Position numbers and translations under genes: made by a program
The notes under the pieces: model-generated
The model's database searches: none
Told to the model about the DNA's origin: nothing
What the model saw: only the letters and a program-made list of their open reading frames with translations
DNA from: Escherichia coli
GTDB taxonomy: Bacteria; Pseudomonadota; Gammaproteobacteria; Enterobacterales; Enterobacteriaceae
DNA length: 64,000 nt
Assembly (NCBI RefSeq): GCF_050920415.1
Contig: NZ_CP169309.1
Direction: 5' to 3' (one strand)
Part shown: piece by piece, positions 61,548 to 62,137 of the stretch
How the letters are laid out: the number at the start of each line of letters is the position of its first letter
Numbering within the stretch: position 1 is the stretch's first letter

Positions 61548-62137
61548 GTGAGTTATTACGCCTTTGAGGGGTTAATTCCAGTGGTTCACCCGACGGCGTT
61601 TGTCCATCCCAGTGCGGTCTTGATTGGCGATGTGATTGTGGGAGCCGGTGTCTACATCGGCCCACTCGCCTCACTGCGTGGTGACTACGGGCGGTTGACG
61701 TGCAAGCGGGAGCCAATATTCAGGATGGTTGCATTATGCATGGCTACTGCGACACTGACACCATCGTTGGGGAAAACGGCCATATCGGGCACGGAGCAAT
61801 CCTGCATGGTTGTGTGATTGGTCGCGATGCATTGGTCGGGATGAACAGCGTGATTATGGATGGCGCGGTCATTGGCGAAGAGAGCATTGTTGCCGCCATG
61901 AGCTTTGTCAAAGCAGGCTTTAGCGGCGAGAAACGTCAGTTGTTGATGGGTACGCCTGCCCGCGCTGTACGCAGTGTTAGTGACGACGAGTTACACTGGA
62001 AGCAGTTGAATACCAAAGAGTATCAGGATCTTGTCGGCCGCTGCCATGTAGCGTTACATGAAACGCAGCCGTTGAGACAAATGGAGGAAAATCGCCCCCG
62101 TTTGCAGGGGACGACGGATGTGACGCCGAAACGGTGA
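61548..62137 (+). pseudogene. caiE: caiE (hexapeptide-repeat, gamma-carbonic-anhydrase-like) with apparent -1 frameshift near 61698
   Basis: Frame 0 ORF gives [50 protein letters not shown] then diverges; a second frame resumes the CaiE-like sequence from GTG 61700 ([17 protein letters not shown]...) to the stop at 62137. Confidence 0.8.

Follow-up and report, generated by a model that had tools for sequence, protein, structure and literature searches.

The caiE locus

The window analysed here is a 64-kb stretch of one strand of an Escherichia coli genome. It contains the carnitine operon caiTABCDE, of which caiE is the last gene, together with the divergent fixABCX genes and the convergent caiF, an arrangement found in the annotation of both MFDS1022581 and N96. 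In the near-identical MFDS1022581 record, caiT, caiA, caiB, caiC, caiD, caiF and fixABCX are annotated as intact, and the same genes appear intact in the window genome. The caiE sequence itself (positions 61548-62137 of the window, plus strand) is a pseudogene of 590 nt, while the intact gene with which it was aligned has 591 nt. The spacer between caiE and caiF (62138-62253) holds palindromic REP-type units (GCCGGATG.../...CATCCGGC) and is 31 bp shorter in one relative with the intact allele (L016).

The lesion consists of the loss of the T of codon 51 (ATC, Ile51), by which TTG ATC GTG became TTG A-C GTG. Alignment with the intact 591-nt caiE of E. coli N96 and Z0117EC0005 gave one gap column of one base, which maps the missing T between positions 61698 and 61699 of the window; this placement is unambiguous because the T is flanked by A and C in the intact sequence. 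The lost base lies outside any homopolymer run, and its deletion abolishes a GATC site. Save for the missing T, the caiE sequences of the window and of N96 were identical in all 591 columns, and the deletion was recovered again when the 64-kb window was compared with N96. The K-12 CaiE protein (b0035) reads Ile51-Val52 at the same site (...GRLIVQAGAN...).

Table 1. Parts of the caiE pseudogene, by position in the window
Feature	Position	Strand	Basis or remark
caiE codons 1-50, native frame (VSYYAFEG...GDYGRL)	61548..61697	+	Same as the first 50 residues in CaiE from K-12 and from the intact clade allele
Deletion site 'AC', remnant of codon 51	61698..61699	+	Single gap column in the alignment
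Out-of-frame tail (TCKREPIF...SCMVV; 39 unrelated residues), followed by TGA at 61815-61817	61698..61817	+	Translation
caiE codons 52-196 and stop, frame shifted relative to the start codon; includes His65, His82 and His87	61700..62137	+	Translation

These results agree with most of a preliminary description of the locus, which had read the CaiE-like sequence in two overlapping frames, one running from GTG 61548 to the first TGA and the second to a stop at 62135-62137. It had counted only two nucleotides ('ac') between the codons ttg (61695-61697) and gtg (61700-61702), where the alignment now shows the loss of a single base, and it had correctly given Ile-Val for K-12. The comparison with intact caiE that it proposed is the one reported above, the single gap falling on the T of Ile51. 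Its placing of the start of the second frame at GTG 61700 was less secure: the frame does read through to 62137, but it is already open from 61685, and the GTG, a mechanical start only, does not in itself mark a start site.

Predicted products of the pseudogene

Protein sequences were scored against the CaiE equivalog model (NCBIfam NF010150 / PRK13627, curated cut-off of 305 bits). With the missing T restored, the protein scored 415.2 bits over residues 1-196 of 196, well above the cut-off, and was identical to the intact allele of close relatives (P0017). The ancestral gene was therefore caiE. The window holds no continuous CaiE frame of about 196 aa, the frame being broken at 61698/61699, and the two pieces that it does encode both scored below the cut-off: 102.5 bits for the 89-aa product (model positions 1-54) and 295 bits for the 145-aa fragment (model positions 52-196).

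If translation began at the native GTG (61548), 50 authentic residues would be followed by 39 out-of-frame ones up to the stop at 61815-61817. Such a product would comprise the first beta-helix coils only, without about three quarters of the left-handed beta-helix. The closest solved relatives of CaiE are hexapeptide-repeat proteins resembling gamma-carbonic anhydrases (among them 8gpm, 8gpp, YrdA 3tio and Cam 1qrf). The metal ligands of Cam are His81, His117 and His122, and the offsets of the alignment with Cam suggest that His65, His82 and His87 of CaiE are the counterparts of these gamma-carbonic-anhydrase ligands. A functional CaiE is not expected from the window gene, because about three quarters of the beta-helix and all three putative metal-binding histidines would be missing, and CaiE activity has probably been lost. 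The preliminary description had likewise taken the gene to be inactivated; that view is supported by the loss of one base from the gene that ends caiTABCDE, a loss recurring in at least seven other records, "inactivated" being used here in the sense of what the sequence predicts.

Distribution of the deletion allele

At least seven further sequence records carry the same deletion with identical flanks. Among them is the food isolate MFDS1022581 from Korea (RefSeq NZ_CP169399.1, ACE00D_RS21370), which matched a 901-nt query at 100%. Five further carriers were compared at the DNA level, namely AP025751.1 (a complete genome from a study of cryptic clade I), the 2011-era draft of E. coli M863 (GCA_000190955.1) and three Logan assemblies, each made from its own public sequencing run (SRR32612591, SRR25147556 and SRR25278280). 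All five displayed the deletion, and in the 2.4-2.6 kb compared their flanks matched the window exactly. Escherichia sp. 10290 was recognized from a protein record alone. The perfect 901-nt match suggested that the window might be the MFDS1022581 record itself, which was ruled out by 4 SNPs and a 15-bp indel over the 64 kb. Since the two sequences differ, two distinct assemblies share the deletion and lend the allele independent support.

Matching of a 61-nt probe centred on the deletion site in 5,406 complete E. coli genomes detected the exact deletion allele in one of them (MFDS1022581), the T being kept in the other 5,405. An exact look-up of peptides that only the deletion allele can encode found the 89-aa product under the name "hypothetical protein" in three NCBI genomes (Escherichia sp. 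10290, the strain with locus tag EsCd1HHP049 and a third), and the C-terminal orphan reading frame (145 or 133 aa) was called on about 60 contigs, including those of E. coli M863, STEC_7v and 1.2741.

Several carriers belong to cryptic clade I, as presumably does M863. The carriers confirmed in the clade I study of Okuno et al. 2023 and its supplements (PMC10100065) were only 10290, HH-P049 and 7v: Table S1 assigns strain 10290 (a hybrid STEC/ETEC of type stx2a/esta/elt2, from a patient who had bloody diarrhoea) to "clade I", the Fig. S2 legend includes HH-P049 with the C-I strains, and 7v is treated as C-I in the plasmid comparison. No mention of cai or carnitine genes was found in that paper. 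The allele is thus a marker of a sublineage, the identified members of which belong to Escherichia cryptic clade I.

Between the window and the nearest intact copies (N96, L015 and L017) there were 0-1 substitutions in about 2.6 kb, and an intact allele otherwise identical to that of the window was also common. Carriers were all identical across caiE, with no further decay of the gene as yet that would mark relaxed selection independently. The event appears recent, because carriers do not differ within the gene and intact relatives lie only 0-1 substitutions away over those 2.6 kb.

Origin of the frameshift

The preliminary description had named an assembly indel error as the alternative to inactivation. 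Under this explanation the genome would truly read GATC, the T having been lost in sequencing or consensus building, possibly by a methylation-related miscall at the Dam site. The lost base does fall within a GATC motif, and some long-read base-callers are known to make systematic errors at such motifs. However, the deletion spans records of different times and places, from the 2011-era draft of M863 through complete genomes of a 2023 study to a recent RefSeq genome and the three assemblies of separate runs, while 5,405 complete genomes that share the 60 flanking nt have retained the T. Comparison of the window with N96 over 64 kb revealed just two other indels, a 1-bp difference in a T run at 13717 and a repeat-flanked one of 15 bp at 22084, and no frameshift was seen in other housekeeping genes of the window. 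Because the allele recurs, a random assembly error is excluded, and the intact T of 5,405 genomes that are locally the same in sequence makes a systematic one very unlikely. An artefact of the Dam site or of long reads was rejected, given an allele found in assemblies made years apart as well as in run-level Logan assemblies and absent from those 5,405 genomes, and error of any kind is left with only a very slight probability.

Two further explanations accept the deletion and propose that CaiE activity persists in spite of it. Programmed -1 ribosomal frameshifting or transcriptional slippage might restore a full-length CaiE, and both frames are open over 133 nt (61685-61817), within which a -1 shift would in principle rejoin them. 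Yet neither a slippery heptamer (X XXY YYZ in the zero frame) nor a homopolymer run of five or more was present within 61548-61817, and the two-frame arrangement is not conserved, being the derived state of a singleton lineage against a continuous gene in 5,405 of the 5,406 complete genomes. On these sequence features recoding seems effectively refuted, with a probability close to nil. Alternatively, the gene may be split and still partly functional, with an internal start (ATG 61736 or GTG 61700) giving rise to the C-terminal 133-145 residues, which would retain some CaiE activity, alone or with the N-terminal piece. Every carrier examined has the downstream frame intact and without changes, gene callers predict the C-terminal reading frame, an AGGA stands at a plausible spacing 10 nt upstream of the predicted ATG start, and all three putative metal-ligand histidines lie within the fragment. 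Its conservation carries no information, however, since decay would not yet be expected after so recent a mutation (0-1 substitutions relative to intact relatives over 2.6 kb), and the internal start is a prediction only. Moreover, the fragment would be without the first 51-63 residues, which form the first beta-helix coils in homologues solved as trimers, and it scores below the CaiE family cut-off. A partly functional split gene is thus improbable, if less so than recoding or error.

The caiE sequence of the window is very probably a genuine, recent and lineage-inherited frameshift pseudogene, a case of ordinary bacterial gene decay. One T of codon 51 (ATC to A-C) would have been lost in the ancestor of the sublineage, and the descendants would have inherited the loss.

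Other features of the window

Besides the lesion in caiE, the window lacks 15 bp (GTTAATTCCCGGCTG) at about position 22084 (region 22064-22100), which MFDS1022581 and N96 both possess. A 9-bp direct repeat (GTTAATTCC) borders the missing segment, which lies just past the stop of thiB, within the 5' end of thiP, where its absence removes five codons in frame (WLIPG, before VSA). This looks like a deletion by repeat-mediated slippage that is private to the window strain. Between apaH and folA (about 45978-46528), a CcdB-family toxin pseudogene with an internal stop stands beside an intact CcdA antitoxin gene, as it does in N96. A transposase remnant and the type III secretion effector gene espY1 are inserted between rluA and djlA (36713-38175); the whole segment is absent from N96, and the BLAST alignment breaks exactly there.

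The density of substitutions between the window and N96 (L006 and L007) was strongly mosaic, with about 1-2% in the regions 16-36, 40-44 and 52-60 kb and no more than about 0.1% in the rest. This pattern suggests patches of recombination between otherwise very close genomes.

Functional implications and annotation

A polar effect on the operon is not expected, and caiT, caiA, caiB, caiC and caiD should be unaffected, since nothing in the operon lies downstream of caiE, and caiF, on the opposite strand, is transcribed separately. The function of CaiE is unconfirmed, the evidence being that its overproduction stimulates the carnitine racemase and dehydratase activities of CaiD and CaiB (PMC2131755). 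Because the evidence consists of an overproduction effect only, the phenotype of caiE loss is likely mild.

Carriers of the deletion would be natural caiE-null strains in which the rest of the cai and fix genes is apparently intact, and they could be used to probe the role of CaiE. One may go further and regard the clade I sublineage, which keeps an apparently intact caiTABCD, caiF and fixABCX without CaiE, as a natural knockout showing either that carnitine respiration in nature can do without CaiE or that the C-terminal fragment suffices; this is an unlikely proposition at present. If true, it would concern a sublineage that includes human-pathogenic STEC/ETEC hybrids such as 10290, and could help to settle the function of CaiE.

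A different lesion was observed in N96, the nearest relative in which caiE is intact; its caiC (696-2249 of L002 and 10170-11723 of L007, corresponding to 59095-60648 of the window) is annotated as a pseudogene with an internal stop, while caiC of the window appears intact. Two independent lesions in one operon of very close relatives could be a hint that selection on carnitine metabolism is relaxed in the lineage.

The frameshift is already flagged in the public annotation (RefSeq) of a near-identical strain, where PGAP labels the copy on NZ_CP169399.1 "caiE, frameshifted". In several other genomes the halves of the pseudogene were deposited as separate proteins (for instance BDI34623.1/BDI34622.1 and BDI44593.1/BDI44592.1) under the names "hypothetical protein" or "carnitine operon protein CaiE". 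The proper label is that of one pseudogene rather than two hypothetical proteins, and an attempt to "correct" the sequence as if it were an assembly error would be mistaken. The finding has little importance beyond correct annotation, apart from providing a one-base marker for one sublineage, the identified members of which are Escherichia cryptic clade I.

Comparison with known systems

The allele of the window and its 901-nt surroundings are identical to the caiE pseudogene of MFDS1022581 (NZ_CP169399.1), carried there by a different genome, as the SNPs and the 15-bp indel over 64 kb indicate. Compared with E. coli K-12, the gene occupies the same locus in the same order (caiD, caiE, convergent caiF, carB), and its T-restored protein has 196 aa and is 97% identical to K-12 CaiE (b0035, NP_414577.2). 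It differs from K-12 caiE in having lost one T of codon 51, which leaves an 89-aa product and an orphan frame of 145 codons. The T-restored protein scored 296 bits against the PaaY model (TIGR02287), below the equivalog cut-off of 319.6; being below the cut-off of PaaY and above that of CaiE, it is CaiE and not PaaY. The same protein aligned over nearly its full length with PDB 8gpm (E = 8e-61). Unlike the gamma-carbonic-anhydrase-like proteins, the predicted product of the window gene ends ahead of all three putative ligand histidines.
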